DNA of 64,000 nt from Squalus acanthias. Taxonomy: Eukaryota. The translations under genes were made by a program, and so were the position numbers. Where the stretch lies: positions 94,986,001 through 95,050,000 of the forward strand of contig CM059432.1 of NCBI GenBank assembly GCA_030390025.1, given 5' to 3'. This document shows positions 6,896 through 63,861 of this stretch, piece by piece (positions within the stretch are counted from its first letter, which is position 1; each line of letters starts with the position of its first letter). The notes beneath the pieces are model-generated. The model searched no databases and was not told the origin of the DNA. It saw only the letters and a list, made by a program, of their open reading frames with translations.

Positions 6896-7918
6896 GCTTC
6901 CGATATGTCTTCCTTTTTCTTCAACCGAGGATTCCCCTCGACCGTGGTTGACATGGCCCTCGATTGTGTCCGTTCCATTTCCAGCACTTCTGCTCTCACC
7001 CCATCCCCTCCCTCCCTCCCAGAACCACGATAGGGTTCCCCTTGTCCTCACCTTTCACCCACCAGCCTCCACATTCAACGGATCATTTTCCGCCACCTCC
7101 AGCGTGATCCCACCACCAAACGCATCTTCCCCTCCCCTCCCCTTTCAGCATTCCGAAGGGACCACCCCCTCCGCAACACCCTGGTCCACTCCTCAATCAC
7201 CCCCAACAGCCCCTCCCCTCCCCACGGCACCTTCCCGTGCAAGCGCAGGAGATGCAGTACCTGCCCTTTTACCTTCTCCCTTCCCACTGTCCAGGGCCCC
7301 AAACACCCCTTCCAGGTGAAACAACGATTTACTTGTACGTCTTGCAATTTAGTATACTGTATTCGCTGCTCACGATGCGGTCTCCTCTACATTGGGGAGA
7401 CCAAACACAGATTGGGTGACCACTTTGCGGAACACCTCTGTTCAGTCCGTAAGGGTGACCCTGAGCTTCCGGTCACCTGTCACTTTAATTCTTCACTCCA
7501 CTCCCACTCTGACCTCTCTGTCCTCGGCCTCTTACACTGTTCCAATGAAGCTCAACGTAAGCTCGAGGAACAGCACCTCATCTTTCGATTAGGCACTTTA
7601 CAGCCTTCTGGACTCAACATTGAGTTCAACAATTTCAGACTATAACCCCTGCCCCTGTTTTTCAGGCGGCAGGTGTTGATGATTCTGCTATCCCCATTTG
7701 CAACATTTAACCACTCCCGCCTTCCACCCTATTACAGACCGTCCCTTTTGTTCTTTCCTCCCCTCCCCCTTTCCATGCCTCTGCACCTGCTTAAAACCTG
7801 TCACATCTCTAACTTTTTCCAGTTCTGACGAAGGGTCACAGACCTGAAATGTTAACTCTGTTTCTCTCTCCCCGTTTGCTGCCTGACCTGCTGAGTATTT
7901 CCAGCATTTTCTGTTGTT
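6896..7918 (+). mobile_element. 5'-truncated Penelope-like retroelement (GIY-YIG endonuclease and pLTR)
   Basis: ORF 7316-7645 FTCTSCNLVYCIRCSRCGLLYIGETKHRL...EH; flanking 9-bp direct repeat ATTCCTAGT (6887-6895, 7919-7927); hammerhead motif at 7821-7857. Confidence 0.92.
7821..7857 (+). ncRNA. Minimal type I hammerhead ribozyme motif in Penelope pLTR
   Basis: AGTT-CTGACGA-AGGGTC-ACA-GACCT-GAAA-TGTT-AACT: CUGANGA and GAAA core, stem II GGTC/GACC, stem I AGTT/AACT. Confidence 0.7.
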
Positions 7919-8616
7919 ATTCCTAGTACCATACCAGTTCACGTCAGTATACCTGCATGGATAGACTGGCATGGTAATCCATCTCATCTCATATAGTAAG
8001 GTGGCCCAGACTGAACTGAATCAGCATCACCATTTCCCCAATAGACTTCCGCTAATATCCCATGGCTTATAAACTTTACTGACAACGTTCATTATAGATA
8101 TGGTGTCTTCCACAGAAGTTAAAGGACTAAAACTTTTGCGGCACCATTGCACTACTGGAAGTGGAGCAGGGCAGTACTTCATGACCCCGTCCCAAATCAG
8201 TATGTAAATAGCAAGCCAGATTTGTTAATTTGTATTGCATTTAGTTTTTAAACCGAAATAGATAATTATGCAAATCAAATACATGCATGCATAAATCTAG
8301 CTTTGAGTAAATTGAAATCTAGTTTTTGGTCATTCTCCTTATGGTAGCTAAAAGTTTACATTTTGCATGTAGTATTTTTTTTAATGCCCCATTATGAGCA
8401 GGTGTCAACAGTGTGATACTTCCAGACCCTGTCAATGTAACAAACATTTATTATTGATAAAAATCCTTTAGAATACCATTATTATTTATTGACAGAAGCA
8501 GATAAATATGATATTTTAGAAAATGCTCTTGAAACACAAGTACAATATGTAATAAATTTGGGATTAATGAATATTCAACTGAATTCAATGCAAGTGTAAA
8601 TTCAATCAACATCTAA

Positions 8617-9530: not shown

Positions 9531-12500
9531 GACCATGCTGGGACCAGAGTTCTAGCGAATCGAATAACTAGGGAGGTAGATAGGGCTTTAAACTAAATAA
9601 GGGTGGGGAGAGGGCCCCGGTGAAGAGAAATCTAGAATGCTAAAGAGAAAAGACAAGGAAGCAGTGCAGGAAAGTGATTGGGGTAAGGATAACCAGATTG
9701 TGTCAGGAAGGGACAGAGCGTACAAACAAAGGAGTGCACTAACAAATAGGGTCCGGGTAAGAAAAAATGGTAAGGCAAATAGGGCCATATTACAAAAAAT
9801 GTTAAGATGTCTAAAAATGTTAAAGACAAATTTAAAGGCACTGTATCTGAATGCAAGAAGCATTTGTAATAAGGTAGACGAATTAACAGCGCAAATAGAT
9901 GTAAACGGATACGATATAATTGCAATTGCGGAGACATGGCTACAGGGTGACCAAGACTGGGAGCTGAATATCCAAAGATATTCGATATTTAGGAAGGTCA
10001 GGCAAAAAGGAAAAGGAAGTGGGGTGGCGTTGTTAGTAAAGGATGAAATCAGAGCAATAGTGAGAAAGGATATTGGCTCAGAAAATCAAGATGTAGAATC
10101 AATCTGGGCGGAGCTAAAAAGCACCATGGGGCAGAAAACATTGGTGGGAGTTGTCTATAGGCCTCCAAACAGTAGTGGTAATGTATCAAACAGGAAATTA
10201 GAGATGCATGTAACAAGGGTACTACAGTAATCATGGGTGACTTTAATCTGCATATAGACTGGCCAAACCAAATTAGCAATAATACTGTGGAGGATAAATT
10301 CCTGGAGAGTGTACGAAATGGATTTTTAGACCAGTACGTTGAGGAGCCAACTAGGAACAGGCTATCCTAGATTGGGAATTGTGCAATGAGAAGGGGTTAA
10401 TTAATAATCTTGTTGTGCGGGGTCCTTTAGGGAAGAGTAACCATAACATGATAGAATTCTTCATTAAGATGGAAAGTGAAGTAGTCCAATCCGAAACTAG
10501 GGTCCTAAATCTAAACAAAGGAAACTACGAAGGTATGAGGAGTGAGTTGGCTATGATAGATTGGGGAGCTCATTAAAAGGCTTGACGGTGGATAAGCAAT
10601 GGCTAACATTTAAGGAATGAATGCATGAATTGCAACAGTTATACATTCCTTTCTGGAGCATAAACAAAAGGAAAAGCGGCTTAACCATGGCTAACAAAAG
10701 AAATTAAGGATAGTATTAGATCCAAAGAGGAGTCATATAAAGTTGCCAGAAAAAGTAGCAAGCCTGAGGATTGGAAGCAGTTTAGAATTCAGCAAAAAAG
10801 GACCAAGAGATTGATGAAGAGGGGAAAAATAGAGTACGAGAGTAAACTTGCAAGAAACATAAAAGCGGACTGTAAAAGCTTCCACAAGTATGTAAAAAGA
10901 AAAAATTAGTGAAAACAAATGTAGGTCCCTTACAGTCAGAAACAGGAGAATTTATAATGGGGAACAAGGAAATGGCAGAGCAATTAAACAAATACTTTGG
11001 TTCTGTCTTCACGGAAGAGGACACAAATAATTCCCAGAAATGCTAGGGAACCAAGGGCTAGTGAGAAGGAGGAATTAAAGGAAATTAGTATTAGTAAAAA
11101 AATAGTGCTGGAGAAATTAATGGGACTAAAAAACGATAAATCCCCAGGGCCTGATAATCTGCATCCCAGAGTACTAAAAGAGGTAGCCATGGAAATAGTG
11201 GATGCACTGGTTGTCATCTTCCAAAATTCTATAAATTATGGAACAGTTCCTGCAGATTGGAGGGTGGCAAATGTAACCCCACTATTTAAAAAAGGAGGGA
11301 GAGAGGAAACAGGGAACTACAGACCTAACATCAGTAGTAGGGAAAATGCTAGAGTCTATTATAAAGGATGTGATAACAGGACACTTAGAAAATATCAATG
11401 GGATTAGACAAAGTCAGCATGGATTTATGAAAGGGAAATAGTGTTTGACAAACCTACTGGAGTTTTTTGATGATGTAACTGGTAGAATAGATAAGGGAGA
11501 ACCAGTGGATGTGGTGCATTTGGATTTTCAGAAGGCCTTTGATAAAGTGCCACATAAGAGGTTAGTGTGCAAAATTAAAGCAAATGGGATTAGGGGTAAT
11601 ATACTGGCATGGATTGAAAATTGGTTAACAGACAGGAAACAGAGTAGGAATAAATGGGTCTCTTTCGGGGTGGCAGGCGGTGACTAGTGGGGTACCGCAG
11701 GGATCAGTGCTTGGGCCCCAGCTATTCACAATATATATCAATGATTTGGATGAGGGAACCAAATGTAATATTTCCAAGTTTGCTGACGACACAAAACTAG
11801 GTGGGATTGTGAGTTGTGAGAAGGATGCAAAGAGGCTTCAAGGCGAATTAGACAAGTTGAGTGAGTGGGCAAATACATGGCAGATGCAGTATAACGTGGA
11901 TAAATGTGAAGTTATCCACTTCAGTAGGAAAAATAGAAAGGCAGAGTATTATTTAAATTGTGATAGATTGGGAAATGTTGATGTACAGAGGGACCTGGGT
12001 GTCCTTGTACACCAGTCACTGAAAGCAAACATGCAGGTGCAGCAAGCAGTTAGGAAGGCAAATGGTATATTGGCCTTCATTGCAAGAGGATTTGAGTGCA
12101 GGAGCAAGGATGTCTTACTACAGTTATACAGGGCCTTGGTGAGACCACACCTGGAGTACTGTGTGCAGTTTTGGTCTCCTTACCTAAGAAACGATATACT
12201 TGCCATAGAGGGAGTGCAGCGAAGGTTCACCAGACTGATTCCTGGGATGGCAGGACTGTCATATGAGGAAAGATTGGGTCGACTAGGCCTGTATTCACTA
12301 GAGTTTAGAAGAATGAGAGGGGATCTCATTGAAACGTATAAAATTCTGACAGTGCTAGACAGACTGGATGCAGGGAGCATGTTTCCCCTGGCTCGGGGGT
12401 CTAGAACGAGGGGTCACAGTCTCAGGATACGGGGTAAGACATTTAGGACTGAGATGAGGAGAAATTTCTTCACTCAGAGGGTGGTGAACCTGTGGAATTC

Positions 12501-12698
12501 TGTACCACAGAAGGCTGTGGAGGCCAAGTCACTGAATATATTTAAGAAGGAGATAGATAGATTGATTTCTTAACACAAAAAGCATCAAGGGGTATGGAGA
12601 GAGAGCAGGAAGATGGTATTGAGATAGAGGATCAGCCATGATCGTGTTGAATGGCGGAGCAGGCTCGAAGGGCTGAATGGCCTACTCTTTTTTCTATA
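9531..12698 (+). mobile_element. CR1-clade LINE: end of ORF1, nearly complete but disrupted ORF2 (APE endonuclease and RT), 3' UTR
   Basis: ORF1-like C-terminus HAGTRVLANRITREVDRALN* (9531-9596); endonuclease LYLNARSI..ETWL..GVVYRPP; RT SPGPD, DFQKAFDKVPH, SGVPQGSVLGP, FADDTK; several frameshifts and stops. Confidence 0.95.
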
Positions 12699-24766: not shown

Positions 24767-27700
24767 TCACAGCCCCCGCCTTTACAGGTGTGCAGCGAAT
24801 GAGTAATGCAGGTAGCAGTAACAAAAATTACATCCGGCCCTGGATCCAATTGCAACAGGCGCGTGCAGTGTGCACCCTGGGTGTGATCAGATTTCTAGAC
24901 CATAGTGTACAGACTAGATTTTTGCACAATACAAGAAGAAAATGGTTTAAGATATTTTCAGAGGAACTTGTGGGAAAATAATTAATCTTCCATATACAGT
25001 GAACAAGCAATCAGTCGAGTAGATTGATCTTTCTAAGAATTATTCCGACAGTGGTAATGTGTGTCACATGATCTCTCTAGCACACACTGCATGCAAAGCC
25101 TTATTTTGGATTTGCACTTCAGTTTGTTATTGTTTCGTCAGACCAAGAAGGATTATTCAACCACGTAGTTATTTTTACAAAGTTTGTCTAATTTTCTCTC
25201 CTAAAGCTACTGACGTGCTAGGCCACAATTCCATGGGTCCTGGCAGGCTTCAGGTAACTCAAGTTTTTCATTTTTCATGTGTAGTGCCTGACGGTGAATG
25301 CTGTTTAACCAATGAGAGGGACCACAGCCAAGCCTGTCCTTGCCCAAAATCCATACGCATGGGGAGGGTGGTATTTTTGTCTTCAGCACTTGGGCAGTAA
25401 ACCTGTGGGCTGGATTGTCCACCCATTGTAGAAATCGCCCAACTTTCTACCGATTTCAGTGGAAATTAAAATCAGGCAGTTTAATAACAGGCAGGTGATC
25501 CTCCCCAGCCCGCCAATTTATTGCTCAAGTGGTGATGATGAAAATTACCCCCGTGTGCTTCCATTGGATCGCAATTGGGAATGGGGAATACTGGCTGGTT
25601 TATTAGCAGACTCCTCTCCAGTCAAAATTATAGTACAACTAATGCTATCCTTGCTGAAAGCTGATCAGTAAATATAGACCACAAATGAAACCTTGGATTT
25701 ACCTGCTCAGTATGGCCTTTTACCAAAGCCAGACCGAGTTTACCCATAGGGCCATTGGGGGAATTATAACCTGGTGTTTCAGTTATTTGCTTACATTCCG
25801 TTGCACGAGTTATCACTAGTAGCTTATTTGTTTTGCAGTTTCTTTCATTGTTGATGTTCTGGTCCTGGTGCCATAAAATGCGTCATCATGCTTTGAAATG
25901 CTTTAAAAGCTTTGAATTTGGACTCTTAACATTTTGTATTTAGTCAGTGCCTGTAGTTACTTGGCTTTCCAGCATTTGGCATCCATAAGTAGTACTTAGT
26001 GTTTCTACATCACATAACTTGCAGTATATGGCCTATCAAAATTCTTAAAGAACTTGAAATGTTTCAAATTGATCCTGGAAGAAGTGGCAACACAAGATCC
26101 TTGGTGTAATACCAAATTATCACATTCAAGAAGCAAAAATGGCACCAAATGTCCCATGTTGCAGAATAAAGTGTATAACATCATAGTTGATCCTTGCACC
26201 AAATTACCCCCATTCCCAAAACATAAATGGAGGCAGATGATTGGAGCTCCTCACCCAACTTGTGATTGACTCAAATAACCACTATCTGTTTGCTTTGTAT
26301 TTAGTTAATGGGCTATTTTAGCCAATTCAGATAAGTAGGAAAGCTTCCAGTCAGTAATGAGCAAGCACAGTATAGCCATTAAATCAAATTTCCCATTTTT
26401 CAAACTCAGTAGAATGGATCCCGCAGCTCCAACCCAATGAACCAATCAAAATACTCAACTGTCTTCACGTTTTTGGTTGCTATTTTCCTGCTTCACTTTC
26501 ATTCATTGTATACAGATAAAAATTAATATAACTTAAATGCATTAAAAAAATTACTCTTTGGGGTGGGGGAATAAACTTAAAATTTGCCATTTAGCTTTAG
26601 AAATGCTAATGAGAATTTTTCCGTGTTCAGGCCTGTGCTTCTGGGGCTTGAATTCTGCTTCAGTTCTAGAGTTGTAAATTGTTCCAGAGTTGGATATTTT
26701 ACCTGGGTTTTAGGTGTTGGAATTTGTGTGTGTGGGGTGGGGAAAGAGAGAGAGAGAGATAATCCTGTGGCAACCAGATGCAAGAGGCAGAAGAAAAAAA
26801 ATCAACATTGAAATTTTGTGTGTGTGTGCTACGAAATATTAATTTTGAGGTATTTTGGATGAGGGTTTTTTTGTTTGTGCAGAGGCCAGAGGGGCTTGTT
26901 TAGCTGAGTACGCACACTGCAGTGAGAGTTCATTAGTCAGTCAGTCAGGCCCAACCTGTATGTATAATTACATTGCGTAAACCTAGTTTCTACAGCTCCC
27001 TAGTTGAGTCATGCTGACCATGCAGGTCCCAGATTTAATACCCTTGGATTATGCAAAGTAAAATCAGCCAGAGATTCTGTTCCTAATTCCTATCCAATCC
27101 AATAGCTCTTCACACAAGAAAAATGGTCACTTTGGCAAAGTATGGGAGGATGACCAGTACGCTTGAACCCAGCAAGAAGTCAATGCCCTCTGGAGAGGGG
27201 AGGGGAGGAAGGAGAAAAAAATGGTCTCAGTAGCTGTTGTTTCATCCATCAAAAAGATAAAGTGAAAATCCAGAATGAGACTTTGTAGTAGGCTGGAGGA
27301 GATCACATGGATTGTGACAACTGCAAGGATGAAGCAATTTCAAAGCAAGTATATTCTAATTTTTGAAGAATGTCTCAATCATTTATATATGGATGATGAA
27401 TGAACTATATAAAAAGAATGAGGAAAAATACATGGGGTAGATGATCCAAAAAAAGTTCTTTTGAAAAACTCTACGAAAATTTATTAAAAGTGGTTAATTT
27501 TCCATTACATAAAATAATATGCGCCCACAAATATTCAAAAGATCAACCTAGGGCTGCATCTTACTAAATATTACAACTGAAATGGTTTTTCTCATGCTAA
27601 GTTTGCTTTAACATAGACAAACCACGTTTATGCTTTCCTGATGGCAGTAATGCTAGAGAATAAGTAAGAGGATAGTTCAGTTGAAAATGGAATAATTATG

Positions 27701-27829
27701 TATGAATTTTTCTTTCCTTTCTCACCTTAAAAGATGAAATGGATTTGTTTAAATGATACTAGTATTAAAACGTCACAATAGGCTCAAGGGTTAAGTTTTT
27801 TTAATAAAAAAAGTAGTAGGGGTGACAAA

Positions 27830-28085
27830 GTTGAGAGATTCAGTTCTTTTCGCCTCTGGGAGCCAAGTTCAAATCCTGCCCAGACTGATTGAATGAAAAT
27901 TCCTTCTCTCTCCCAACCTTCAGCGTCTTGCATGAAATAACCTTTGGCATTTCCGAGTGGGCATGGATTTAAACGCAGTGGTCAATAATTCTGCACAAGC
28001 TGACACGAAGATAGAAAATCTCTGTGGCTTAAGAGGACTGAAGTTGCAAGAACTCAGTGATACAATAGGAGGCACTCTTCAAAGG
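27830..28085 (+). mobile_element. Ancient tRNA-headed SINE, possibly LF-SINE-related; similar fragment near 14980-15170
   Basis: CTTTTCGCCTCTGGGAGCCAAGTTCAAATCCTGCCCAG has a B-box and resembles the LF-SINE 5' end as I recall it. Confidence 0.35.
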
Positions 28086-28195
28086 CTGATATTAAGACAT
28101 GTTGGTGTAGTGTAGTAGAAGTTTTGCACTGCACTTAACCTGTGGTTTTTGCTGCACTGGGTTCAGAAATTGGGAAAATGCATTGATATTTCTTA

Positions 28196-28420
28196 AATAA
28201 CAACAGAAAACGCTGGAAAAACTCAGCAGGCCAGGCAGCATCCGTGGAGAGAGAAACAGAGTTAACATTTCAGGTCGAAGACCTTTCGTCAGAACTCTGA
28301 CGAAAGGTCTTCGACCTGAAACGTTAACTCTGTTTCTCTCTCCACGGATGCTGCCTGGCCTGCTGAGTTTTTCCAGCGTTTTCTGTTGTTTCGGATTTCC
28401 AGCATCTGCAGTATTTTGAT
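28196..28420. mobile_element. Palindromic Penelope pLTR mini-element, family A
   Basis: 95-bp inverted arms (28199-28293 / 28296-28390), one mismatch; flanking repeat ATTGATATTTCTTA (28182-28195, 28421-28434); hammerhead cores on both strands. Confidence 0.9.
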
Positions 28421-29884
28421 ATTGATATTTCTTACCTTGATGAAATTGGTGTTTTATCAATCTTACAACTTTTGCATGTATTCTATTTGTGCTGATAGAA
28501 TCAAGAATATCTGCCAATCTAAGTAGGTTTTTGTTTTGTTTTGGTCACAATGTTAAGTAAACCATTATTAACCAGTAGAATATATTTCTTTGTGTTATGT
28601 TTTAGCTATGCATCTGATGTCTAATTCTGCTCTGGTGGTTGCATTATAATAGCCAGAGTAATAGTGCTACTGCCAAGCGTTTCCCCTTTACATCACAGCC
28701 ATATAAAATTTGTCTATTAGTTCTGGGTTGCACTACAGGGCAAAAAAAACCCTGCTTTTGTTTCCCTGTTGAAAAACAGTGCATTTGCATTTTGAGAGTA
28801 CTGTTGAGTAGTACAATATTTTTGTGAAAAGTCGGCTAGAGTGCACAGTTGGGAATTACTTACGGGACGGGATGCCAAAAATTTGTGGAGGATGGGGTGA
28901 GATTTTTAAAAATTGAATAGTAATCTGTGAGAAATAGTGATATGCGAAATCAAAGAAAATCATTTTTAGACTGCAGAATAGCTGTTCTCTAAACTTTCAA
29001 CAATGGACATTAAGGTACCCACAAATACTCATTGTATACCCCTGAAAATGTTTTCTTTTTGATACTTTCTTCATAAAATATTCATTTTGGTTGCCCTTTT
29101 GCCCCATCTTGAGGAATGATGCCATTTACATAGAAACCAGTTGACTAGTGTATGTGCTTATTTACTCCAGCCACCTGCTGGTTAAATTCCGGGTACATTT
29201 TCTTGCAAAAAAGCTACCACGTAAAGTAAGAAGCAAGACTATTTGTGGAATTTCCTACTGATGACAGAATAACCAAATATGGCACACTATTTACAACACT
29301 ATTTATAACCCAATACATGGTGCCTACTGTTCAGTTTAATCCCACCCTTCAGCAGAGTTGTTACTGTGTAGTATTAAATGCATAAATGTACAAATTTATT
29401 ATCCCTAAATCTCTTCTCCCCTCCCCCTCCCCCTCCCAATCCCTGCCTTTCAATCTTCAAGTCACCCACCATTATTTCAAATGAGTGAGTAGTTCATTTG
29501 ATCTCTGTCCTTTTCTCTGTATCTGTACAGTAGGTGGTGTGTAAAAGTGCTGTGCATTAACTTGCATTCCAGTTTTCTTTCCCTTTCCCTTCCCTTTGTG
29601 GGGACTTGCTTCGCCTGCTGGACTAATGTAGATCGTGAACTCTCCATATGGGGAATTATGGACATGGGCCATAATCCTATAAATCTGATATTGCACCATG
29701 CTGTGGGATAACCTGACTGTCAACAGTACCATAAAACCGGCAGTACTTGTACGTATCCAAAAATAATGATTGAAGTGTATTGTATTCACTAAATTCTGTA
29801 AGATGTAATGGAGACAGTTTTCCTGGATTTAGCATCCAAATACCACCTGAAAAAGTGGTGCTAATCCTTCTACTCTATTTTGGG

Positions 29885-31103
29885 TAGGAGAGATAAACAG
29901 GGAAATTATAGGCCTATTATTCTAACATCAGTTATGGGAAAGTTACTTGAATCTGTTATTAGGGACAGTGTGACTGAGCATTTGGACAAATATGAGCAGG
30001 TCAGAGAGAGTCGGCATGGATTTGTAAAGGGTAAGTCATGTCTAATGAACCTAGTTGAATTTTTTGAGGTAACAAACATGTTAAAAATGAGAGCACATGG
30101 AATTGGAAGCAACCTATTGGCTTGGATAGGGAATTGGATAGGAGACAGAGTAGGGATAATGGGTATGTACTCAAATTAGTAGGATGTGTCTGGTGGTGTC
30201 CCCCAGGGATCTGTACTGGAGCCTCAGCTTTTCACTATATTTATAAATGACTTGGATGAAGGAATAGAAAGCCGTATATCTAAGTTTGCTGATGACGCTA
30301 AGTTAGGTGGCACAGTAAATAGTGTAGATGGCAGCAGAAAGTTGCAACGGGACATTGATAGATTAAGTGAGTGGGCAAAACTGTGGCAGATGGAGTTCAA
30401 TGTAGGAAAGTGTGAGGTCATCCACTTTGCACCCAGGAAAGATGGATCAGTGTATTTTCTAAATGACGAGAAGCTAGGAACTGTGGATGAGCAGAGAGAT
30501 TTATGGGTTCAGGTACAGAAATCACTGAAAGCTAGCGGACAGGTACAAAAAATAATTTAAAAAGCTAATAAAATGTTGGCCTTTACCGCAAGAGGGCTGG
30601 AATACAAAGGAGTAAAAGTTATGTTACAGGTGTACAGAGCTCTGGTTTGATCCTATCTGGAGCACTGTATTCAGTTCTGGGTACCACACCTCAAGAAGGA
30701 TATATTGGCCTTGGAGGGGGTGCAGCGCAGACTTACCAGAATGGTACCGGGGCTAAAAGGGTTAAATTATGAGGCCAGGTTGCACAGACTAAGCTTGTAT
30801 TCCCTTGAGTATAGATGATTAAGGGGTGATCTAATTGAAGTGTTTAAGATGATTAAAGTATTTGATAGGGTAGATAAAGACAAACTATTTCTTCTGGTGG
30901 GGGGGGGGGGGGTGGTTGCGAGGGAAGTCCAGAAAAAGGGGGCAAAACCGTAAAATTAGAGCTAGGCCATTCAGGGGCGATGTCAGAAAGCAGTTCTTCA
31001 CACAAAGGGTAGTGGAAGTGTGGAGTTAAGATACAGATCAGCCATGATCTAATTGAATGGCAGAACAGGCTTGAAGGGCTGAAATACCTACTCCTGTTCC
31101 TAT
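29885..31103 (+). mobile_element. Degenerate 5'-truncated CR1 LINE
   Basis: GNYRPIILTSVMGKLLES, GVPQGSVL, FADDAK; CR1 tail GCCTACTCCTGTTCCTATG-like at the end. Confidence 0.9.
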
Positions 31104-33143: not shown

Positions 33144-33373
33144 AGTTGTCAATGGCAGTTGGTCAAAAGATGCAGTAAGAAATCACCATTCCAATCAATG
33201 TTGTTCCGACTGTCAATAAAATATTGCCCTTGTGAAGATTTTATAAAGAGACAGTCTGGGGGGAAAAAAAATTAAAGCAAGTTTCTCAGAAACAAACCAA
33301 AATTCCCTCCACATCTATGGAAGAATGCAGAAATCGACAGGAGCCGAGGAGCAGATCAATATCAATAGCGATA

Positions 33374-34208
33374 GCAAAATACTGCAGATGCTGGAAATCC
33401 GAAATAACAACAGAAAACGCTGGAAAAACTCAGCAGGCGAGGCAGCATCCGTGGAGAGAGAAACAGAGTTAACGTTTCAGGTCGAGACCTTTCGTTAGAA
33501 CTGGAAACAGCAGGAAATCAAATAGATTTAAGGCAAGGATAAAGCTGGGAAAAGGGGGGAGGGGATGAAAGAACAAAAGGAGAGATTAAGAGATATTCAA
33601 GGCAAGAGGTGGTGTTAATGTGACAGGTTAAGGCTAAAAGAAGTGTGAAATGCACTGGCAGAATGAAGGACAGCTGCCAGCTTCTAGGAGGGGGAAAAAA
33701 AGGGGGGGCAAACAAAAGGGTGGATGAAAAAATAAAATATAAATGTGATTGGGGCTGAGGTTATGATCTAAAATTGTTGAACTCGATATTGAGTCCAGAG
33801 GGCTGTAGCGTGCCTAAACGAAAGATGAGGTGCTGTTCCTCGAGCTTACGCTGCGCTTCCGTGGAACAGTGTAATAGGCCGAGGACGGTGAGGTCAGAGT
33901 GGGAGTGAAGCAGTGAATTAAAGTGACAGGTGACCGGGAGCTCGGGGTCCCCCTGACGGACTGAACGGAGGTGTTCCGCAAAGCGGTCACCCAATCTGTG
34001 TTTGGTCTCCCCAATATAGAGGAGACCACATCGTGAGCAGCGAATACAGTATTATAAATTGCAGGAAGTACAAGTAAATCGCTGTTTCAGCTGGAAGGGG
34101 TGTTTGGGGCCCTGGACAGTGGGAAGAGGGGAGGTATAAGGGCATATGTTGCATCTCCTGCGCTTGCACGGGAAGGTGCCGGGCGAAGGGGAAGGGGTGC
34201 TGGGGATG
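33374..34208 (-). mobile_element. 5'-truncated Penelope-like element, family A
   Basis: Minus-strand ORFs FPCKRRRCNICP and GDRFAEHLRSV...LEEQHLIFRLGTLQPSGLN; pLTR nearly identical to 28196-28420; hammerhead at 33467-33502 has a mutated core (CTAACGA). Confidence 0.92.
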
Positions 34209-38233: not shown

Positions 38234-39514
38234 CTATATTTTGGTTCGTATAAAAAGAATGGTTTGCAAAAGTTTAATTTGTGATTGTCATGACTTGAAA
38301 CTGCCCAGAAAAAGAACTTAATATTGCACTTGTTGACAAAGTTAGGGTTTGGTTAAGGAGGTATGCAGGTTTCTGATTTGAACCCCCCACTGCTGTCTTA
38401 CTCTGATTAGTATACCAGTACATGCATTGGGAATGTGAAATTTGATACTGTGTAAGTATTTTAAAAGGTAACAGAGGTGTAAAAATGTTAATTTTCTCTT
38501 TTGAGACAAGGCAGTGTTGGTTTCATAAAGTAAAATAAACACAAAACTTACTTACAGGATACCTAAATAATGAAATGTAGCACATTCTGGTTAAAGAGTC
38601 AGTCTCAACATCAGCAACCCTTCTTTAAAAAAATCAGCTTGTTGCATCATAACATTTTATGTGTTTCTATTTCTGTTGTTTTTTTTTAGAGTAGTTTTGT
38701 TTAAGCAGTGACTAATGACATCACTGGGGAAAACTCAGGCTCGATAACTCCTCAGAGCCAAATGATATGAGAAAGCTGAGTCAACATCAGTAGAGATACT
38801 TTCATTAAGCTGGAATGCTTAACTATGTATTCAACCCACTCATACTGTCCAAGTTAGGTCATCTGCTACTAACACTTACTGGTACAGATATTTTAAAGCA
38901 TAAGTGAATGAGGAGGGAGGGGTGGGGTTAGGGTGCAATATATGTACAGGTTAACAATTCATAGTAAAGTACGTAACTTTAAACGGCTTCTTATAATGAA
39001 ACAACAACTGAGATCTAACAGTGAAAATGTTAACGCTATATCACCCACTTTTGATGTTTTTCTTGAAATGTGGTACTTTGCACAGGCTACTGGTATTAAA
39101 CAGAATTATTTATGTGTGACAGAATGATACCTAAAGGCTATATTTAATTCAGTAAACTATAGGTGTAGACTTGATTTATGTGATATATACCATAGGAAGT
39201 AAATTTGGATCAACAGTGGCCCTTCCTATATTCTCCATGCTTGCTAAAAATAGCAATGTTTCTGAGTCTTGAGTTAAAGGTTTATTTTGTTCACCAAATT
39301 TACATTGCATCCATTATTTGTATTGCAACCATGCTCTCCAAGTGGGACTTGTGTTTGAGATGTAAGAAAACTATACTTTCTAATTAATATGTAATTTGAG
39401 TTAATTAGCATAATCTGTCACTGAATGGCCCATTGTTACTGTATTACTCGTTAATAACTATAAATATTAAAAGCAGATGATACAAAATAATATGATAAGC
39501 TAAACTGTTAAAGC

Positions 39515-39645
39515 AAGAAATAAAAACAGAAAATGCTGGAAATACACAATGGGTCAGACAGCATCTGTAAAGAGAAAAGACAGGTTAAGACATTTTGGGT
39601 GTGTACCCTTCATCAGACTTTCAGCATTCGCAGCTTTTCCTTTTT
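39515..39645 (-). mobile_element. Older degenerate Penelope pLTR fragment
   Basis: AACAGAAAATGCTGGAAATAC...GCATCTGT...CTTCATCAGA similar to family A pLTR. Confidence 0.65.
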
Positions 39646-40790
39646 AATTTACTGTGAAAGCAAGAGCTGATTCCTCTTAGGATTGGGTGTTTTTTTTAAA
39701 TGTGACTGCTTCTAATGTGTATAACTCCAAGGGTGAATGGACTCTGGGTTATATGGGTTACGAACTGCAGTGTAACTGGGCATGTCAATGAAATCATATT
39801 GCATTTGGATTCAGTTCAACTGAAGAGAGATTTATAACTTCTTATACTCTATAATGAATTGAGGTTGCAAATTATTGCTAAATCCAAAACCAGATGGGAT
39901 AGAGCTGTGGGTGGGATCATTGAAAACCTTATAGCACCTTTATATTACACACAACCAATTCAAATAGCAGCAATTCTGTTTTGATTGACAGACAGGCCCT
40001 AGTATCTACATCATTTATATTGCAGATACCAATAACACAAAAACACCTATGACTTTCATTTTCTAGCTGCAGTTTCTCCAACAGTTGGAAAATAGTCCTT
40101 GCAGCACAAAAGCCACTCCAAGCTAGAAAAAGTAGTGACCAGTATCAATAGCTTTCTAAGGTGGTGCTCTGATTCTGCTCATGGTGTCAGGTGAGTAAAA
40201 CCACCTTTTGAGATGGCCATTTACATTACGACTGAAGTTAGGGCTACTTCTATTGGTAGCGTTATAGGGTAAATGCAGCATTTATATAAGCAACATTTCT
40301 GTGTCTTGCACTTTTTTTTTAAACAATACTTAACTCACTCTAATCTCAATATATTGTCGCCTTCACTTTCTTTTTCTGAAACAGCGCTTCTTGGTAATTT
40401 TTCGAGTTCAAAATTCCAACCTGTTGTAGAAAGAAGTAACAAACAGTTTAAAACAGGATTTATGCTGACTTGCAGGAAAGGGAGTTGTACTTTAGATAGC
40501 AACCAGCAGCAGAAACCTTGGAAATTCTACTCCTCCCTAATGCAAGAGGAGTGACACCGATTGAGAAAAGAAAAACAGAAAGACTTAGATTAAATAGTGC
40601 CTTATCATGTCTCTCAGAAATGTCTCCAAGCTTTTCACATTCAATGAGCTATTTTAAAATCAGGTGACAATTGTTATGTAGAAAACTGTGGTGGCCATTT
40701 TCCACACAGCAAGATCCCCCAAAATAGCAATAAAATGAATGACCAGTTAGTTTATCAGTCTTGGTTGTGTTGGACTGCTGAATTGTCAAC

Positions 40791-41615: not shown

Positions 41616-42683
41616 CCAACCTTGCTAAGATTGGCAGACTAATGGCAGAACAGAATTTTAACCTGGCACATTTCTGGTCTATGTGGTCCAATGCCTCACC
41701 ACATGGTGCATATACCCACTACCACAGTCCCTCTCTTCTCACAGAATTTATACTTAGTACGTCAACTTCCCAAATAGGGAAATTATCTGAGGCCACCAGG
41801 TATGGGCCTGATTTCATCAAATGCAGATAGTCGTACATATGTTGATGTGTGTGTTTGTAAACGGCGAGTTGCTGCACTTGATTGACTTTTCTAGGAGAGC
41901 TACGAAATAGAGGAGACGTTTCACAACAGGAAGGGAGAGAAAATCTACTTGAGATATCCCTGGCCAGAGTCGCACATCCTAGTGATAACTTACAAATTTG
42001 TATCACCAGAGATCTGGGAGCAAATTCTCTGCCTTTCCTCTTTACTTGCGAAATTGTGCATAGAGCGAGTGGGCTGACCTAAAACAGTGGAAAATCCTTT
42101 CAAGTCCAGAATAAAATCAATAAAAAGGCTCAAAGCATGTGTATGTGTCTATAAAGCATCTCTTAATAATGCAATTATAGATATATTTAAATAAAAGGCA
42201 TTTCATATTTTTTTAAATGATTCAAATTTATTTCTCATTTATTTGTTACAGTAAATGGGGGAAAGCATTGAGGATAACCTTTTTATTGCTAATACAACTG
42301 TCTCAGCAGTAACTCGTTATGGATTGATAAACTTATTAATCACTTCAATAAAAAAAATAGCTGGCCTTGCTGTCATATGCTTGATTCACACGCATTTCTA
42401 ATACAGGCTGTTTGCTGTGGCTTCCACATGGTGGCAGTAAAGTCAATCCTACTGGGAACTTTCAAGCAGTTGTGACTTTACCTTTTTTTGCATGTGAGGT
42501 AGGATTAAAGTGACAATAAAGACCTGGATAGGATTTAAGCATCATCTTTATCTGAAAATGTGTTCAGTTCACCTTAATATGGCTTACGCAGGTTTGGATT
42601 CCACGATTGGAGCTTGAACCTGTGACAGTTGGCACCTGTACTTCATTTTAAGGCTCCCACGATCCTGTGCATTTATTACATAG

Positions 42684-42770
42684 ATGAGAAGTCGCACAAC
42701 ACCAGGTTATAGTCCAACAGATTTATTTAATTTTACAAGCTTTCGGAGCTATCGCTCCTTCGTCAGGTAA
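42684..42770 (-). mobile_element. Penelope-type pLTR fragment, family B, with intact hammerhead motif at 42733-42770
   Basis: Minus strand TTAC-CTGACGA-AGGAGC-GATA-GCTCC-GAAA-GCTT-GTAA; homologous to 50387-50596. Confidence 0.8.
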
Positions 42771-47428: not shown

Positions 47429-50204
47429 GGCCGGAATTTTGCCGGCGCTCAGAGGGCGGGATTGGAGGCGAGTCAGATGTTAAACTCGCGATGATTGACA
47501 GAACCCGCCGTGATCCCGCCTCCACACATCTTTCCCGAATGTCGGGTCTCCGAATAGCAAACGGATCCAACACCAAGCGGTGCGAAAGGGATTAAAGGCA
47601 CTTAACTGCCTATTAGGTGGTACTTTAGAGCTGTTTTCACAGGGTTTTTAGATTTTCCAGCTTCTGAATCGGGTTTCACGACGTTCCAACAACACGCCAG
47701 GTAAGTGTGGCATGAACACCAGCAAGCTGGAGACTTCACAGCTGCAACTGCAGTGTAAAAGCTGCACTCTCAAATCTGGTCATTTAGAAATCTGTGAGGT
47801 TGCTGATTGAATAATTTGGGGGCATATTCTGTGTTTAGGCTGCAAGTATGTGTTGTGCACAATAGATCCACTGTAACCTGCATTGCTGGATTTTAAAGGC
47901 GCCCTTACCCTAAACTGTGCCACCTCAAATTGTCAGCACACAGATGGCAACGATGCCAAACCTTCGTTCTACATCAATTTATTACAATATTGGCAAAGAA
48001 CATAAACTTTACAAATAAATCTATCATAACACCCAAGTGAGAACCCTTGTGATTATTAACGTGACATCTTCCTCTTACGCATGCTTCTACATTGTGAGAC
48101 TCCTGTGGCTTCAGCATATGCGGTGGCAGCCTGCTCACTTCCCTGCTGCTCCTGCTTAGACGCCTTTGGAGGCCGTCCTCTGGTTTTGGGAGCCTTGGAG
48201 GGCCCTGCCAAAGTCTGCTCCTCCTGCGGCTGTGCAGGGGCAGACTCGGCCATCTCTGTTGGCTCAGGCAGATGGGGCTCTGACCGAGGGTTCAGCAGTG
48301 GCAAGGGAGTGTGAGCGCTTGGAGCGGAGCCCCCACTTCCTTGTGCTCGAACATCACCGTCCCTCTCATGGGTCACCTGCACTTCACTGCTAGCAAGTTG
48401 CTGGAGAGCACCTTGCTGCACATCGATGGAGCCACATGGACCCGTCTCTGTACTGACATTCCTCATAACTGGGACGTCCATGTACCTCTGGTTCCTCTCT
48501 TCAATAGATGCCCATCTATCCTCCATAGCTGGCCATCTATCTAGAAGAGCCACCATGTTGGCTTGTGTCTGGCGAGTTAGGTCCTCCATGGAGGTTGCCA
48601 TCCTTTTCATGGCGGCACCTAGATTGCCCACAGCGTTCACCACGGCACTGCTAATGTTTAAGATGGACTCCTCCATTCTCTGTACACTTGCAGTTACCGT
48701 GGAAGCAAACCCACTCAGAGCCTCCTGCACTTGTTCCTGAAGTTCCAGCACTGCTCTCTTTCTGGATGGCCCCAGAGGCTCGGCATCTACATGCAGCTGA
48801 GCAGAGCTAGGAGCGCCCTGCGTCCTCTGACGAGGTCTCTCCACTGCTGTCCCTGTCGCCAACATCTGCTCCTGCTCACTTGTGAGCTGTGATACACCAG
48901 GTGACAACACTACTCTATCTCGCAAAAAAAACACCGAGGTGTGCGCCTCTGCGCTGGTGCTGGGTGCGCTGAATGCTGGTGACGCTGCTCCCTCAGAGGC
49001 TAGTGGTTCCTCTGAGGAGTGCTCCTGCTCTTCCTCCTGGACAGTGGGGAGCGGGGCTCTCGATGGTCCTGTGGGGGAGTAAAGGCATGAGTTAGACAAG
49101 TGAAATGTATGTTGCAGACACATCCCATTGTGCAGATGCTTAGCACTCAATCTCTATGAACATCATATCCCATATTAGTCACTCATGAATGCTAAATCAG
49201 AGGGTTGGAAATCAATTCTGTCACCAGCTTGCTCTTCTACGCCCGTCTCTCTGTCCCCCACTTCCAGCTCCTCTGCACCTCTAACTATCTCCAGGGCTGC
49301 CTCCTCAGTGCTCGTTAGGTGCACCAGGGATGGTGGGTCTCCTCCTGTCCTCCCCCTCTCCCTTTTATTGTGGGACACAAGTGGAGTTTGAGAGAGATTG
49401 ATGGAGTGAGGGTAAAGAATGGATGACATAGATGTTTAGAAGGAGACTATGAAGGAGTGAGGTGCACAAACCAAGTTCCCTCCCTGTGCGTTGTTAGTTG
49501 TTGGCATTGCATAAGAGTGTGAGTGGTGCATAGTAAGATGGTGACATGATTCTCTACAGAGAAAGAGAGTGATGGGTGAGGGTGCAAGGGATGTTAGTGA
49601 GTTGGCATGTGAAGGGGAAGGTTGCCAATGCAGAGCGATGGGGATGAGAAGAGATGGGAGACAGATGGAAGGTAAGTGTGATGTTATGCTCACTTTTGCT
49701 GATCGCAACAGATCATTAAATCTCTTGCGACACTGCACCCAGGTGCGTATACAGACCGACCTCGAACTGACCTCCTCAGCAATTTGCAGCCAAGCTGCCT
49801 TGGTATGCTGAGGAGGCCTCCTCCATCCATCTCCAGGGAAGAGGACCTCCTTACATCCTCTTACTCCCTCCACAAGAGCATGGAGGGAGTCCTGATCGAA
49901 GCGGGGAGCAGCCTTAGGTTTTTGTGCTGCCATACCTACAGCAGCCAGCACTTCAGGGAACAAAATAGAAATGAATCTGCAGAGGGGACATGGCCCCTTT
50001 AAATAATCAGTCCAACATCGCTTCATCAGACGCGAGCAGCTGACCCGCGCCCAGCAATTGCCTTGGAGAACCTGCACGTCGGCCTTAATGAGGCCAATCA
50101 ATGCAAAATTTAAACTGCAGGGCGGCCGGAACCGCGACCAGGTTTGGAACCCGCTGACCGGCGGACCCGCCTGCCATCCCGCCTCCAGGCGCAAAATCGC
50201 GGCC
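47429..50204. mobile_element. Non-autonomous PIF/Harbinger element retaining the Myb/SANT gene
   Basis: Imperfect TIRs GGCCGGAATTTTGC / GCAAAATCGCGGCC; 3-bp TSD ATG (47426-47428, 50205-50207); no transposase motifs seen. Confidence 0.85.
48056..49933 (-). CDS. Harbinger Myb/SANT-like (trihelix) DNA-binding protein, three exons: 49933-49694, about 49375-49225, 49068-48056
   Basis: Exon 1 APRFDQDSLHALVEGV..LFP..AWLQIAEEV..RTWVQCRKRFNDL with GTGAGC donor; exon 2 HNKRERGRTGG..LTSTEE with phase-1 donor; exon 3 pyrimidine-tract CAG acceptor, open for about 336 codons; exon 2 acceptor not identifiable. Confidence 0.7.
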
Positions 50205-50386
50205 ATGGTGTGTCCCCAATATCAACATTATTCTTTATTTTTAATTCTAGTTGTGATCAGATTTTAAAAACTGATAGCATTGATATTGTAAATTAATTTA
50301 TAATTTTGGATAGTGTATAATGTCAGAGAACATTTAATTGCTTTTTATCTTTTCCATTTTCTCTTTTCCTCTCCTCTCTTGAAGAT

Positions 50387-50596
50387 GAGAAGTCGCACAA
50401 CACCAGGTTATAGTCCAACAGTTTTATTTAAAATTACGAGCTTTTGAAGCTGCTGCCCCTTCGTCCTTTACCTGACGAAGGGGCAGCAGCTCCGAAAACT
50501 CGTAATTTTAAATAAAACTGTTGGACTATAACCTGGTGTTGTGCGACTTCTCATTTTTGTCCACCCCAGTCCAACACCGGCATCTCCGCATCATGA
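50387..50596. mobile_element. Palindromic Penelope-type pLTR mini-element, family B
   Basis: About 81-bp inverted arms (50385-50465 / 50474-50554); flanking repeat CCTCTCTTGAAGAT (50373-50386, 50597-50610); hammerhead core CTGACGA (50472) ... GAAA (50494). Confidence 0.85.
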
Positions 50597-50613
50597 CCTC
50601 TCTTGAAGATAAT

Positions 50614-51305
50614 AGACCTGAATTTCCGATCGGAGGCTTCCAGCGGGCGGATGCCTCCGATCGGGAAAAAATGTACAAACCTACCTGCTGGTTCCGTAGA
50701 TCCCGAGGCTTCCGCTCCTGGACCACTCCTGTTGGAAATGCGCAGAGGCCCAGGGATCCTGGGATCATGTGGGCCAGGAAAACCAATCAAAGAAGGGAAT
50801 CCCCCTTCATACTTTTGACAGTTCTCTATGGACAGAACTGTCAAAAGTATGAATGGGGATCACATTTAAAAACACACTAAAACATTAAATATATATATTT
50901 CTTAACTACATAATTAAAATTAATTAAAATTCCATTTAATTAAAAAATATTTAATTAAATTTTTTGAAAAATAAACTTACCTTTTTGAAGAGTATTTTAA
51001 ATTTATAAATGAGTTATCAAATTTAATTTTTCTATTTTTCAACACTCTTAAGCTGCTAAAAGCCGGCCGTACGCCAGCTTTTACCAGGTGTAAGAATTCT
51101 ATGGCCTTTCAGTGGGCGGAAGTTGTGCAGAAAGCGGAACTCTCCACCCGCGGAGGCCCTTTTCCCGGGCAGGCGGATGATCTGTCAAGAGAATTCTTGA
51201 CAGATCGCAAGTGCTGGCTTTCAGCGCATGAAACCGGCACTTGCGCGGCCCCTATGGGTGCGTACACACCTCGTACGCACCCGTGGGGGTCGGAAAATCC
51301 GGCCC
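50614..51305. mobile_element. Harbinger-type MITE with GC-rich ends and AT-rich centre
   Basis: TIRs AGACCTGAATTTCCGA / TCGGAAAATCCGGCCC; 3-bp TSD AAT. Confidence 0.75.
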
Positions 51306-57221: not shown

Positions 57222-58950
57222 TATATAGTCGGTGCCTAGGGAACGGAGTTTGTGGCGGGGACCGAAGACAATGGCTTCGGTCTTCCCAATATTTAGTTGG
57301 AGGAAATTTCTGCTCATCCAGTACTGGATGTCGGACAAGCAGTCAGACAATTTAGAGACAGGGGCTGGGTCGAGAGAGGTGGTGGTGAGGTAGAGCTGGG
57401 TGTCGTCAACATGGAACATGACGTGTGTTTTCAGATGATGTCTCGGGGCAGCATATAGATAAGAAATAGGAGGGGGCCAAGGATAGATCCTTGGGGGACA
57501 CCAGAGGTAACGGTGCGGGAGTGGGAAGAGAAGCCACTGCAGGTGATTCTCTGGCTACGACTGGATAGATCAGAATAGAACCAGGCGAGGGCAGTCCCAC
57601 CCAGCTGGACGACGGTGGAGAGGCGTTGGAGGAGGCATGGAGTGGTCAACCGTGTCAAAGGCTGAAGACAGGTCAAAAAGGTCGAGGAGCGATAGCTTAC
57701 CATGGTAACAGTCACATAGGATGTCATTTGTGACTTTGATAAGAGTGATTTCGGTACTGTGGCAAGGCGGATATCTGATTGGAGGGATTCAAACTTGGAG
57801 TTCCGGGAAAGATGGGCATGGATTTGGGAGACGACTAAAAGTTCAAGGACTTTGGAGAGGAAAGGGAGGTTGGCAATGGGACAATAGTTTGCAAGGACAG
57901 ATGGGTCAAGGGTTGTTTTTTTGAGGAGAGGGGTGATGATGGCAGATTTGAGGGAGAGGGGGCAGTACCTGAGGAGAGAGAACCGTTAACATCAGCTAAC
58001 ATGGGAGCCAGGAAAGGAAGTTGGGTGGTCAGCAGTTTGGTGGGAATAGGGTCGAGTGAGCAGGAGGTGGGTCTCATGGACAAGATCAGCTTGGAGAGGG
58101 CATGAGGGGAGATAGGAGAGAAACTGGAGAAAGATGTGAGTTCAGAGCTTGGGCAGGGGGAACCTTAGAAGCAGTTTGGTCCGGTGAGCTAGGGGAATGG
58201 AGGGAAGTGGCAGAGGTAGCTGATCGGATGGTCTCAATCTTAGTGACAAAGAAGTCCATGAGCTCCTCGCACTTGTTGTTGAAGGTGAAGGGGGAGGAGA
58301 CAGAGGAGCGGGGTTTAAGAAGACGGTTTGCAGTAGAGAAAAGAAGCCGGGGGTTATATTTGCATTCCAGGATGATCCCGGAATAGTGAGCAGTTTTGGC
58401 AGACAAGAGTACAACCCAATCGATAGTGCTTTATGTAGTCCAGCCAGATCTGGTGGTGAATGGCTAAACCAGTTGTCTGCCATAAACGTTCAAGTCTGCA
58501 TCCTTGGCCTTAAGGGAGCAGAAATGAGGGCCGTACCAGGGTGAGAGAGAGTAATGTTTTTAATGGGGACTAGGGCATCAAAGGTGGAGGTGAGAGTGTG
58601 GTTGAGCAGATCGGTAGCTGCAGAATTGTTGTGAATGGAGGGCCAAAGGCTAAACAGTTGGGCTTTTGAAAGTGCAGTTGTAAGTGAATTGGGAGAGTTT
58701 TTTTTCCCAGGGGAAGACACAGAAGGAAGTAGGGTTGGGAGGGAAGGGGGATGTGGGTGGAGAGCGATACAAGGAAGTGATCAGGGATGGCCTTATCTGT
58801 GATTGATGCGATGGGAGTAGCGAGGCCACTTGAGATGGCAAGGTCAAGGGGGTGACCATGAATATGGGTAGGAGAGTTTACATGGCGGGAGAGATTAAGG
58901 GAGGAAGGGAGGGCAGTGAACTCAGGAGAGAGAGAGCATGATGAGTTGAG
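57222..58950 (-). mobile_element. L2-clade LINE internal fragment (endonuclease end to RT)
   Basis: Minus-strand TSCSLDPIPTKLL, SGVPQGSILGPLLFLIYM, DDTQLYL, WMSRNFLQLNIGKTE. Confidence 0.92.
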
Positions 58951-62577: not shown

Positions 62578-63861
62578 AAAAATAAAAACAGAAATGCTGG
62601 AAATATTCAGCAGGTCAGGCAGCATCTGTGGAGAGAGAAACAGAGTTAACATTTCAGGTCGATGACCTTTCGTCAGAACTGGAAGAAGTTAGAGATTTAA
62701 CAATTTATAAGCAAGTACAGAGCCAGGGAAAAGAGAGGGGGGAGGGGAGGAAAGAACAAACGGGAAGGATGTGATAGGGTGGAGGGCAGGAGAGATTAAA
62801 TGATAAAAGGGATGATAGTGCAAGGCAAAAGAAGATGGTAATGGACATGCAAAGATAGTGCCTTTCACAACCTCAGGGTGTCCCAAAGTACTTTTGTCAC
62901 TGTTGAAATGTAGGAAACGCAGCAGCCAATTTGCACACAGCAAGCTCCCACAAACAGCAATGTGATAATGACCAGATAATCTGTTTTTGTGATGTTGATT
63001 GAGGGATAAATATTGGCCAGGACACCGGGGATAATTCCCCTGCTCTTCTTCGAAATAGTGCCATGGGATCATTTGCGTCCACCTGAGAGAGCAGATTAAG
63101 AAAATAAGAACATAAGAATTAGGAGGCCATATGCTCCCTCGAGCCTGCTCTGCCATTCAATAAGAGCATGGCTGATCTTCGATCTCAACTTTACTTTCCC
63201 GCCTGATCTCCATATCTCTTGATTCCCCTAGTCTAAAAATCTATCGATCTCAGCCTTGAATATACTCAACGACTCCACATCCACAGCCCTTTGGGGTAGA
63301 GAATTCCAAAGATTCACAACCCTCTGAGTGAAGAAATTCCTCTTCATCTCAGTCCTAAATGGCCGACCCCTTATCCTGAGACTATGCCCCCTAGTTCTAG
63401 ACTCTCCAGCCAGGAGAAACAATCTCTCAACATCTACCCAGTCAATCCCCCTCAGAATCTTATTATTTCACTGAGATCACCTCTCATTCTTCTGAACTCC
63501 AGAGCGTATAGGCCCAATCTTCTCATAGGACAACCCTCTCATCTCCGGAATCAATCTAGTTTAACATCTCATCTAAAAGACAACATATCCAACATTCTGC
63601 ACTGGAGTGTCAGCTTAGATTTTTGTGTTCAAGTCCCATGGAGTGGGATTTGAACCCACAACTTTCTACGTCAAAGGTGAGAGTGCTACCAACTGAGCCA
63701 CGGCTGACACTGCTGGCTACTGCTAACAGCAGAATCATTACCAACAGCTGCTGTTCAAGAAAATGGTTATGATCTAAAGTTATTGAACTCAGTGTTGAGG
63801 CTGGAAGGCTGTAAAGTGCCTAATTGAAAATGAGGTGCTGTTCCTCGAGCTTCGGTTGAGC
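62578..63861 (-). mobile_element. Nested cluster: Penelope (62578-62850 and 63765-63861), Deu SINE (about 62852-63096 and 63558-63708), CR1 3' fragment (about 63097-63557)
   Basis: pLTR with hammerhead at 62644-62680; GIY-YIG C-terminus at 63765-63861; SINE halves are collinear with 31684-32217; CR1 TRGHSLRIRG..FFTQRVV. Confidence 0.85.

Follow-up and report, generated by a model that had tools for sequence, protein, structure and literature searches.

The 225-nt palindrome at 28196-28420 of the window (the whole 64,000-nt stretch of Squalus acanthias DNA analysed here) is a genuine and young insertion which, judged by its sequence, is built from the pLTR end of an EN+ Penelope-like element (PLE) of cartilaginous fish. 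Its origin in PLE integration, by whatever route, is close to certain. It is probably a one-off, dead-on-arrival product of such a retrotransposon, primed from both strands of the target. The layout is already known for PLEs, and a 2014 study (PMC4209133) had noted paired hammerheads on opposite strands; the value of the insertion is a testable mechanistic reading, not a new element. Two accounts of these elements (PMC8557442, PMC11167929) treat the way in which PLEs come by their inverted repeats and one-sided tails as an unsettled question, and an insertion with a proven empty site provides a clean minimal case for PLE integration.

The arms of the palindrome (28199-28293 and 28296-28390) are each 95 nt long and contain a single mismatch, at a CpG position where 28267 is A instead of the expected G; they are separated by the 2-nt loop AC. 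Compared with each other, the arms differ at 1 of 94 positions (93/94 identical). The left arm has three nucleotides more than the family sequence at its outer end (28196-28198), and the right arm lacks three nucleotides at 28390/91 that are present in the left arm and in a related copy at 33.4 kb. A tail of about 27-30 nt follows the right arm only, and the whole insert is flanked by an exact 14-bp direct repeat. An exact 14-mer near both ends was shared by none of 20,000 random pairs of places, and none of 200 shuffles equalled the fold of the palindrome (z = -27). At the junction between the arms, four upstream bases fit the long family copies on the minus strand and one fits on the plus strand, giving an overlap of 1 nt with the plus copy, at its position -1 (positions are relative to C3 of the hammerhead motif). 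Three frames of at least 62 amino acids overlap the insert, none of which matches Pfam above the cut-off (one match, to DUF7727, 18.8 bits against a cut-off of 27). The first-pass annotation had described 95-bp arms with one mismatch, a 2-nt loop, a 30-nt tail, a perfect 14-bp repeat and no coding sequence, and the coordinates and frames bear this out. All features are listed in Table 1.

Table 1. Features of the palindromic insertion and of related copies in the window
Feature	Position	Strand	Remarks
Target-site duplication, left copy, 14 bp	28182..28195	+	Single copy at the empty site in X9
Inverted tail-less PLE pLTR 3′ end	28196..28296	-	5′ end -4 from hammerhead C3; 3′ end TTATT
Minimal type I hammerhead, minus copy	28260..28296	-	Stem I intact, stem II 5 bp, stem III ATGT
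Head-to-head junction, 4 nt	28293..28296	.	Family positions -4..-1, minus strand
Direct pLTR 3′ end copy	28296..28390	+	Begins at -1/0
Minimal hammerhead, plus copy	28297..28329	+	Core, stem II and ACGT stem III; 5′ strand of stem I missing
PLE tail, one end only	28391..28420	+	30/30 identity (28389-28418) to tail of 33.4-kb copy
Target-site duplication, right copy, 14 bp	28421..28434	+	
Long tail-less family A copy, 9-11-bp TSD	6896..7921	+	GIY-YIG frame 7034-7645
Long tailed copy, same subfamily, with end of GIY-YIG ORF	33364..34208	-	Closest relative of the arms in the window
Older family A insertion, 15-bp TSD (1 mismatch)	39504..39665	.	Inverted tail-less arm (ends -1) and direct tail-only piece
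Solo tail-less family B copy	42682..42770	-	5′ end cannot be placed
Family B palindrome	50373..50610	.	14-bp TSD; inverted arm without tail, 5′ end at +2; direct arm, 5′ end at -4 to -7, with tail
Family A tail-less copy	62580..62851	-	At least 170 nt of natural upstream sequence

Public sequencing runs were compared with the interval 27700-28900, and the results given here come from the four listed (X1, X5, X6 and X9) of 24. A 3,761-nt contig from X9, which derives from organism C, joins 27701-28181 directly to 28421-28900 (record 25, record positions 2230/2231). It thus represents the empty site, with the 14-mer present once. Between the flanks of this contig and the window there are 37 differences in 961 bases (3.9%), while between the two arms there is 1 in 94, which agrees with an insertion later than the split of the two species. 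In X1, from organism A, single-copy contigs span both the left junction (record 1, 27700-28217) and the right junction (record 8, 28395-28900), with the arms in head-to-head orientation. In X5, from a second individual of organism A (55% of the run covered), and in X6, a putative RNA run, the junctions are not represented. Among the X1 pieces listed (32 of 86,443), none bridges the center of the palindrome by 31 nt on both sides, the one observation that would suit a fold-back artefact of sequencing or assembly, or an ordinary copy rearranged after its insertion. Such an origin is very improbable given the coverage of both outer junctions, the exact target-site duplication (TSD) proven by the empty site, flanks that are not inverted, and arms that are distinguished by one substitution and a 3-nt gap.

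Four further places in the window match the arms, making five insertions of this family (family A) in total. The closest relative in the window, about 5 kb away, is 97-98% identical to the arms, with 91 and 90 matches over the 94-nt body. This copy and the long copy at 7 kb both contain frames with a weak GIY-YIG match upstream of the repeat (E = 0.0013 and E = 0.005 respectively, both below the curated Pfam cut-off), which share 94% amino acid identity. When relatives of the EN frame were sought among 383 candidates, seven matches were obtained; six of these are proteins named from sharks or rays, with identities of 52-66%. Within the window, none of the family A copies was seen to extend as far as the RT core. 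A fragment of the EN 3′ end at 63765-63861 and the pLTR at 62580-62851 may belong to a single element into which other repeats later inserted. The family is very abundant, with 26,023 contigs in X1 and 38,602 in X9 at 90% likeness or more; these are counts of contigs and not of copies, and summed depths were not taken as copy numbers. A second palindrome in the window, at 50373-50610, has 84-bp arms and an 8-nt loop and belongs to a hammerhead family unrelated to A (family B).

The insert shows several of the features by which an EN+ PLE insertion is recognized: a GIY-YIG-linked repeat, a pLTR hammerhead, a tail at one end, and an inverted 5′-truncated copy, all within a TSD. Complex insertions of EN+ PLEs have been described as containing an inverted 5′-truncated copy, an optional tail of 30-40 bp and a TSD (Arkhipova et al. 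2013, PMC3846280; Craig et al. 2021, PMC8557442; Schostak et al. 2008, PMC2377424). The 225-nt insert resembles the described cases in its head-to-head inverted copy, one-end tail, TSD, and hammerhead within the repeat, and differs from them in that its halves are cut to about 100-125 nt, the ORF is absent and the hairpin is near-perfect. Its TSD is 14 bp, compared with 8-10 bp in the rotifer cases described, and its tail is about 27-30 nt. The inverted pLTR segments that the first-pass annotation named as a frequent feature of Penelope insertions correspond to a published layout, an inverted copy with a one-sided tail and a TSD. Shark mini-palindromes, and twin or dual priming applied to PLEs, were not found in the literature searched, which covered few subscription journals.

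Two other classes of element were considered and rejected. The animal non-LTR retrozymes described by Li et al. (2026, bioRxiv 10.64898/2026.07.22.740005) are likewise non-coding, derived from pLTRs and hammerhead-bearing. They are, as described there, head-to-tail tandems in which dimeric active ribozymes are possible, whereas the shark insert is head-to-head and cannot form them; the head-to-head order, the lack of a tandem array and a plus copy without stem I rule out a retrozyme. A MITE or DNA transposon has symmetric terminal inverted repeats lying directly against a short TSD. This class is excluded by the one-sided 30-nt tail, the 14-bp TSD and the retroelement-end sequence.

The first-pass annotation had placed a hammerhead core on each strand, with the minus copy keeping stem I (AGTT/AACT) and the plus copy keeping the ACGT stem III, and the motif scan agreed with this. 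The motif is that of a minimal type I hammerhead, with stem I AGTT/AACT, a core at 28297-28303, a 5-bp stem II, GAAA and a palindromic ACGT. C3 lies at 28297 on the plus strand and 28292 on the minus strand, and the cores are 4 nt apart; the predicted cuts are at 28325/28326 (plus, 29 nt downstream of C3) and 28264/28263 (minus). The core, stem II and GAAA were found by the scan in five family A arms or copies and two of family B. The hammerheads of the two families have the same layout and differ in stem sequence with pairing kept; their MAFFT alignment is one column out of register after stem II. Because of the position of the junction, stem I of the minus copy reaches 7 bp (28257-28299) through mirror symmetry. 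The 7 nt that directly follow the predicted cleavage site are also repeated at the junction (28290-28299). No Rfam hammerhead family matches the insert, and the assignment therefore rests on the motif and on published descriptions (PMC4209133). Like the minimal type I motifs that Cervera and De la Pena (2014) describe there from PLEs of metazoans, the shark motif has a short stem I, an extra base before stem II, and a palindromic stem III of the kind associated with dimers. The same account places opposite-strand motif pairs 100-700 bp apart in Schistosoma. The shark cores differ from these in being 4 nt apart and mutually sequestered, one of them without stem I.

When a transcript of the whole insert was folded, both cores were paired, the probability of stem II was approximately zero, and opening one of the cores was calculated to cost 42-45 kcal/mol. 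The predicted structure has a 4-nt apex loop and 93 pairs around one mismatch, close to the roughly 95 bp of dsRNA that had been anticipated for any transcript. As the arms pair and bury both cores, computation points to a dsRNA hairpin rather than a working ribozyme, and the back-to-back ribozymes are, on this modelling, most likely inert. For the host, the insert would be one among many potential dsRNA hairpins. The only Rfam matches on the insert were to mir-14 (31.8 and 30.1 bits against a threshold of 53); a microRNA precursor was rejected since these scores fall under the gathering threshold and indicate no more than a long hairpin. The Rfam scan also gave a sub-threshold match to Plastid-ycf2.

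The outer ends of the insertions are fixed. All four tail-less family A ends lie at TTATT, and both family B ends lie at one motif. Each of the three TSD-flanked head-to-head insertions in the window has one tail-less end and one tailed end, and each consists of two opposed pieces, one starting from either end of the TSD, which is the layout of twin or dual priming. Within the palindrome at 28196-28420 it is the tail-less arm that supplies the loop bases and the opposite arm that bears the tail. The insertion at 39.5 kb comprises non-overlapping pieces, an arm and a tail only, as in classic twin priming; its tail match was equalled by 7 of 2000 random window segments. Arm and tail-only piece overlap there by a few bases at the hammerhead edge, an arrangement that is itself twin-priming-like. 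Joints between an arm and a tail alone are also among those listed from public contigs (28294 to 28389 in X1 and X5, and 28296 to 28397 in X5).

Biochemical work on PAc, the Poseidon element of Anolis carolinensis, provides a parallel (Frangieh et al. 2024, PMC11167929). The Anolis protein is reported to cleave and extend both target strands and to begin reverse transcription at either of two sites, one on each side of the tail, and it is predicted to be a dimer. In the shark insert, likewise, the tail lies between two ends separated by about 30 nt, a hammerhead is present just upstream, and the target is AT-rich. Its TSD begins with ATT, the motif reported as most often cut by PAc in vitro, and the two other TSDs do not. 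The ribozyme was dispensable for PAc insertion in vitro, and the available part of that report does not deal with the inverted copy. The fixed ends, the pairing of mixed ends and the Anolis biochemistry together make it the simplest reading that each nick primes its own cDNA.

We suggest the following sequence of events. The protein of the element would cut both strands 14 nt apart, in keeping with the observed TSD and empty site. The nick in the bottom strand would then prime cDNA synthesis at the start site at the tail end of the RNA, and the nick in the top strand would prime another at the tail-less start site, which lies some 30 nt further inward. Both cDNAs would halt at a length of about 100-125 nt, close to the hammerhead's 5′ edge, where the observed ends lie; candidate causes are the 5′ end of the RNA, a splice boundary, or stalling at the folded ribozyme. 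The 3′ ends of the two cDNAs would finally be joined head-to-head with a 1-nt overlap, and the second strands filled in. In dual priming, the templates would have been a pair of RNAs or pLTRs; alternatively, a single RNA may have served twice. L1 twin priming, described by Meyer et al. (2010, PMC2837659) along with a proposed dual priming, yields non-overlapping pieces with no fixed internal site. The shark insert differs in its fixed second priming site and in the near-complete overlap of its pieces, which is as expected of dual priming or of one RNA re-copied. A 6-nt repeat is common to the end of the tail and the start of the TSD (28413-28426), and in the 33.4-kb copy, at 33358-33375, the tail likewise passes into a similar short repeat. 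During priming, the tail may thus have base-paired with its target.

Junction palindromes of this type have been interpreted as the result of self-priming (Arkhipova et al. 2013, PMC3846280), and the tail has been ascribed to endonuclease-mediated resolution (Craig et al. 2021, PMC8557442). In such a scheme a single cDNA folds back near the hammerhead and copies itself, with processing by the endonuclease or by repair that leaves the tail on one side. A version with antisense RNA in place of cDNA was proposed by Arkhipova et al. (PMC3846280), and in a possible hybrid variant the fold-back would turn one cDNA to the sense direction, allowing it to anneal with a short second cDNA. Taken with its variants, this explanation has the published interpretation behind it (PMC3846280, Discussion). 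It predicts arm ends within 4 nt of each other, as observed, and is also favored by the near identity of the arms (93/94) and by the family B palindrome, which fits an 8-nt loop on the tailed strand. For the palindrome at 28196-28420, however, it requires a single base pair closing a 2-nt loop. When the end of the top-strand cDNA (28250-28296) was folded as DNA, its last two bases were predicted to be unpaired, and the stability was no better than that of shuffled sequences. A top-strand cDNA cannot template the tail, and a bottom-strand cDNA cannot template the loop. Fold-back also leaves unexplained why the inverted arm stops where solo tail-less copies stop, and does not account for insertions made of an arm and a tail only. 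A fold in which stem I of the cDNA would self-prime a 3-nt extension was formed, weakly, by one natural copy (z = -0.47) and not by the cDNA end of the palindrome; an origin of the junction in such an extension is speculation.

Priming from both target strands is preferred over a single fold-back because the loop and the tail come from different arms, and because arm and tail-only insertions exist; we regard fold-back as a serious but rather unlikely explanation. Against the two-primer reading, its mechanistic steps are all read off end products. The loop argument concerns two informative bases, which would agree by chance in 1 of 16 cases if untemplated, and the three discordant pairs of ends out of three give p = 0.125 when taken alone. 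In the family B palindrome the loop belongs to the tailed arm, and a single fold-back fits equally well.

The first-pass annotation had offered two readings of the palindrome. One was a stereotyped minimal product of Penelope integration whose boundary is set by the ribozyme. The family link, tail, TSD and empty site uphold a minimal Penelope-like integration product, but the junction lies at -4 on the minus arm and -1 on the plus arm, about 30 nt upstream of the predicted cut, and cleavage is therefore not what sets the boundary. As for the stereotyped junction, loose clustering is all that was recovered. No junction is shared between any two of the three head-to-head insertions with a TSD in the window: they are -4 | -1 at 28196-28420, -1 with a tail-only piece at 39504-39665, and +2 | -4 to -7 at 50373-50610. 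Among the ten 5′ ends of seven window insertions, five lie within -7 to +2, three run 170-930 nt upstream, one belongs to a tail-only piece and one cannot be placed. With the insertion at 28196-28420 excluded, two of the six others stop within -7 to +2 (p = 0.015 for an assumed span of 300 nt, or 0.067 for 135 nt). These figures are suggestive of a loose clustering of 5′ ends at the 5′ edge of the ribozyme, beside a motif that resembles a splice acceptor.

This motif occurs in the three long family A copies, where a pyrimidine run followed by CAG ends at -3 and resembles a 3′ splice site. Its coordinates are 7813-7824 on the plus strand, and 33499-33510 and 62677-62688 on the minus strand. No such AG was found upstream of the hammerhead in family B. 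In Drosophila virilis the PLE intron is reported to end at the 5′ edge of helix I (PMC4209133). About 50 nt downstream of C3, the 62.6-kb copy has another acceptor-like motif with an ATG after it; this motif is mutated in the subfamily of the palindrome.

Joints in public contigs were examined for further junctions; 15 of 126 joints and 12 of 95 rows of letters between joined segments were listed, and 17 joints were converted to family positions. The nominal ends of the inverted arm in these range from -4 to +73, each supported at low depth by one or two contigs per run. They fall variously at the ribozyme's 5′ edge, near the cut site (+28 to +35) and in the body. Letters between the joined segments shift some of the joints, that of 28219/28301, for example, becoming approximately -3 | +4. 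The sample is a selected one in which ends upstream of -4 are seen only via short inserted letters and copies identical to the palindrome are invisible. These sequences support the view that junctions would form anew at each insertion, at most with a preference for the edge of the ribozyme. Many contigs run past -4 into natural upstream sequence (loose ends at 28296), so that a stop near the ribozyme is not obligatory.

Several joints and loose ends were set aside. The 'go back' joints 28276/28249 and 28263/28233 and a tandem-like joint 28341/28311 were not converted, and the joint from 27886 to 28199 was rejected as a chance match to the flank. Loose ends at 28295 and 28298 were not counted as a truncation hot spot, as their consensus resembles the natural upstream sequence with one base changed. 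A cluster of joints at 28310-28315 is likely to reflect clipping at the variable loop II. The joint from 28219 to 28301, which belongs to a related subfamily, was present in both X5 (organism A) and X9 (organism C); it represents either an insertion predating the split of organisms A and C or a recurrent junction.

The other reading offered at first was a non-autonomous hairpin element with its own lineage, in which a master palindrome is transcribed and re-inserted whole by Penelope protein. The great abundance of the family noted above would suit this, PLE proteins are reported to mobilize other sequences between pLTRs in trans (PMC3846280), and copies with exactly the same junction would not appear as contig joints. 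The differing junctions argue against it. That of the palindrome is not repeated among the five family A insertions in the window, and the joints listed (15 of 126) all differ, each occurring in one or two contigs per run at depths of 12-168, compared with 9-16 for the single-copy flanks. Furthermore, the left end is an RT start site, which is not required of the 5′ end of a copied hairpin, and the hairpin would bury the pLTR sequence needed for recognition by the protein. A hairpin lineage is accordingly quite improbable.

A stronger form of the two-primer reading can be put forward tentatively, although we think it unlikely to hold in full: Penelope integration would be a programmed two-primer reaction, in which a protein dimer uses the two target nicks to prime one cDNA at each of the two start sites, and short cDNAs run off at a defined RNA boundary at the 5′ edge of the hammerhead. 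That boundary might, just as tentatively, be a splice acceptor, a transcript start or the folded stem I, and the short cDNAs would then resemble a strong-stop product. If this is correct, mini-palindromes would account for both the inverted pLTR and the one-sided tail, and the genomes of sharks would contain thousands of natural read-outs of the reaction. The abundance of the family in sharks is sufficient for a genome-wide count of junctions to separate two-primer synthesis from fold-back.

The surroundings of the insertion were examined for other features. No host gene around the insertion emerged from a scan of 147 of the 290 window frames of at least 62 amino acids (those starting at 12-46 kb), a length that leaves the scan blind to short exons. 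Five of these frames had a Pfam match, of which three are retroelement pieces and two are matches below the cut-off. Pattern scans of microbial and viral collections gave no matches, apart from two of 21 nt with no wider similarity that were taken as chance. Decayed fragments of LINE-type endonuclease or RT are present at 9601-12573, 29865-30850 and 57431-57985; Pfam RVT_1 was matched at 29865-30557, and the fragments at 9601-12573 and 57431-57985 were judged by eye. A palindrome with 27-bp arms that lacks a hammerhead is located at 50799-50860, near two long frames (48056-49153 and 49436-50221) that by eye appear Harbinger-like.
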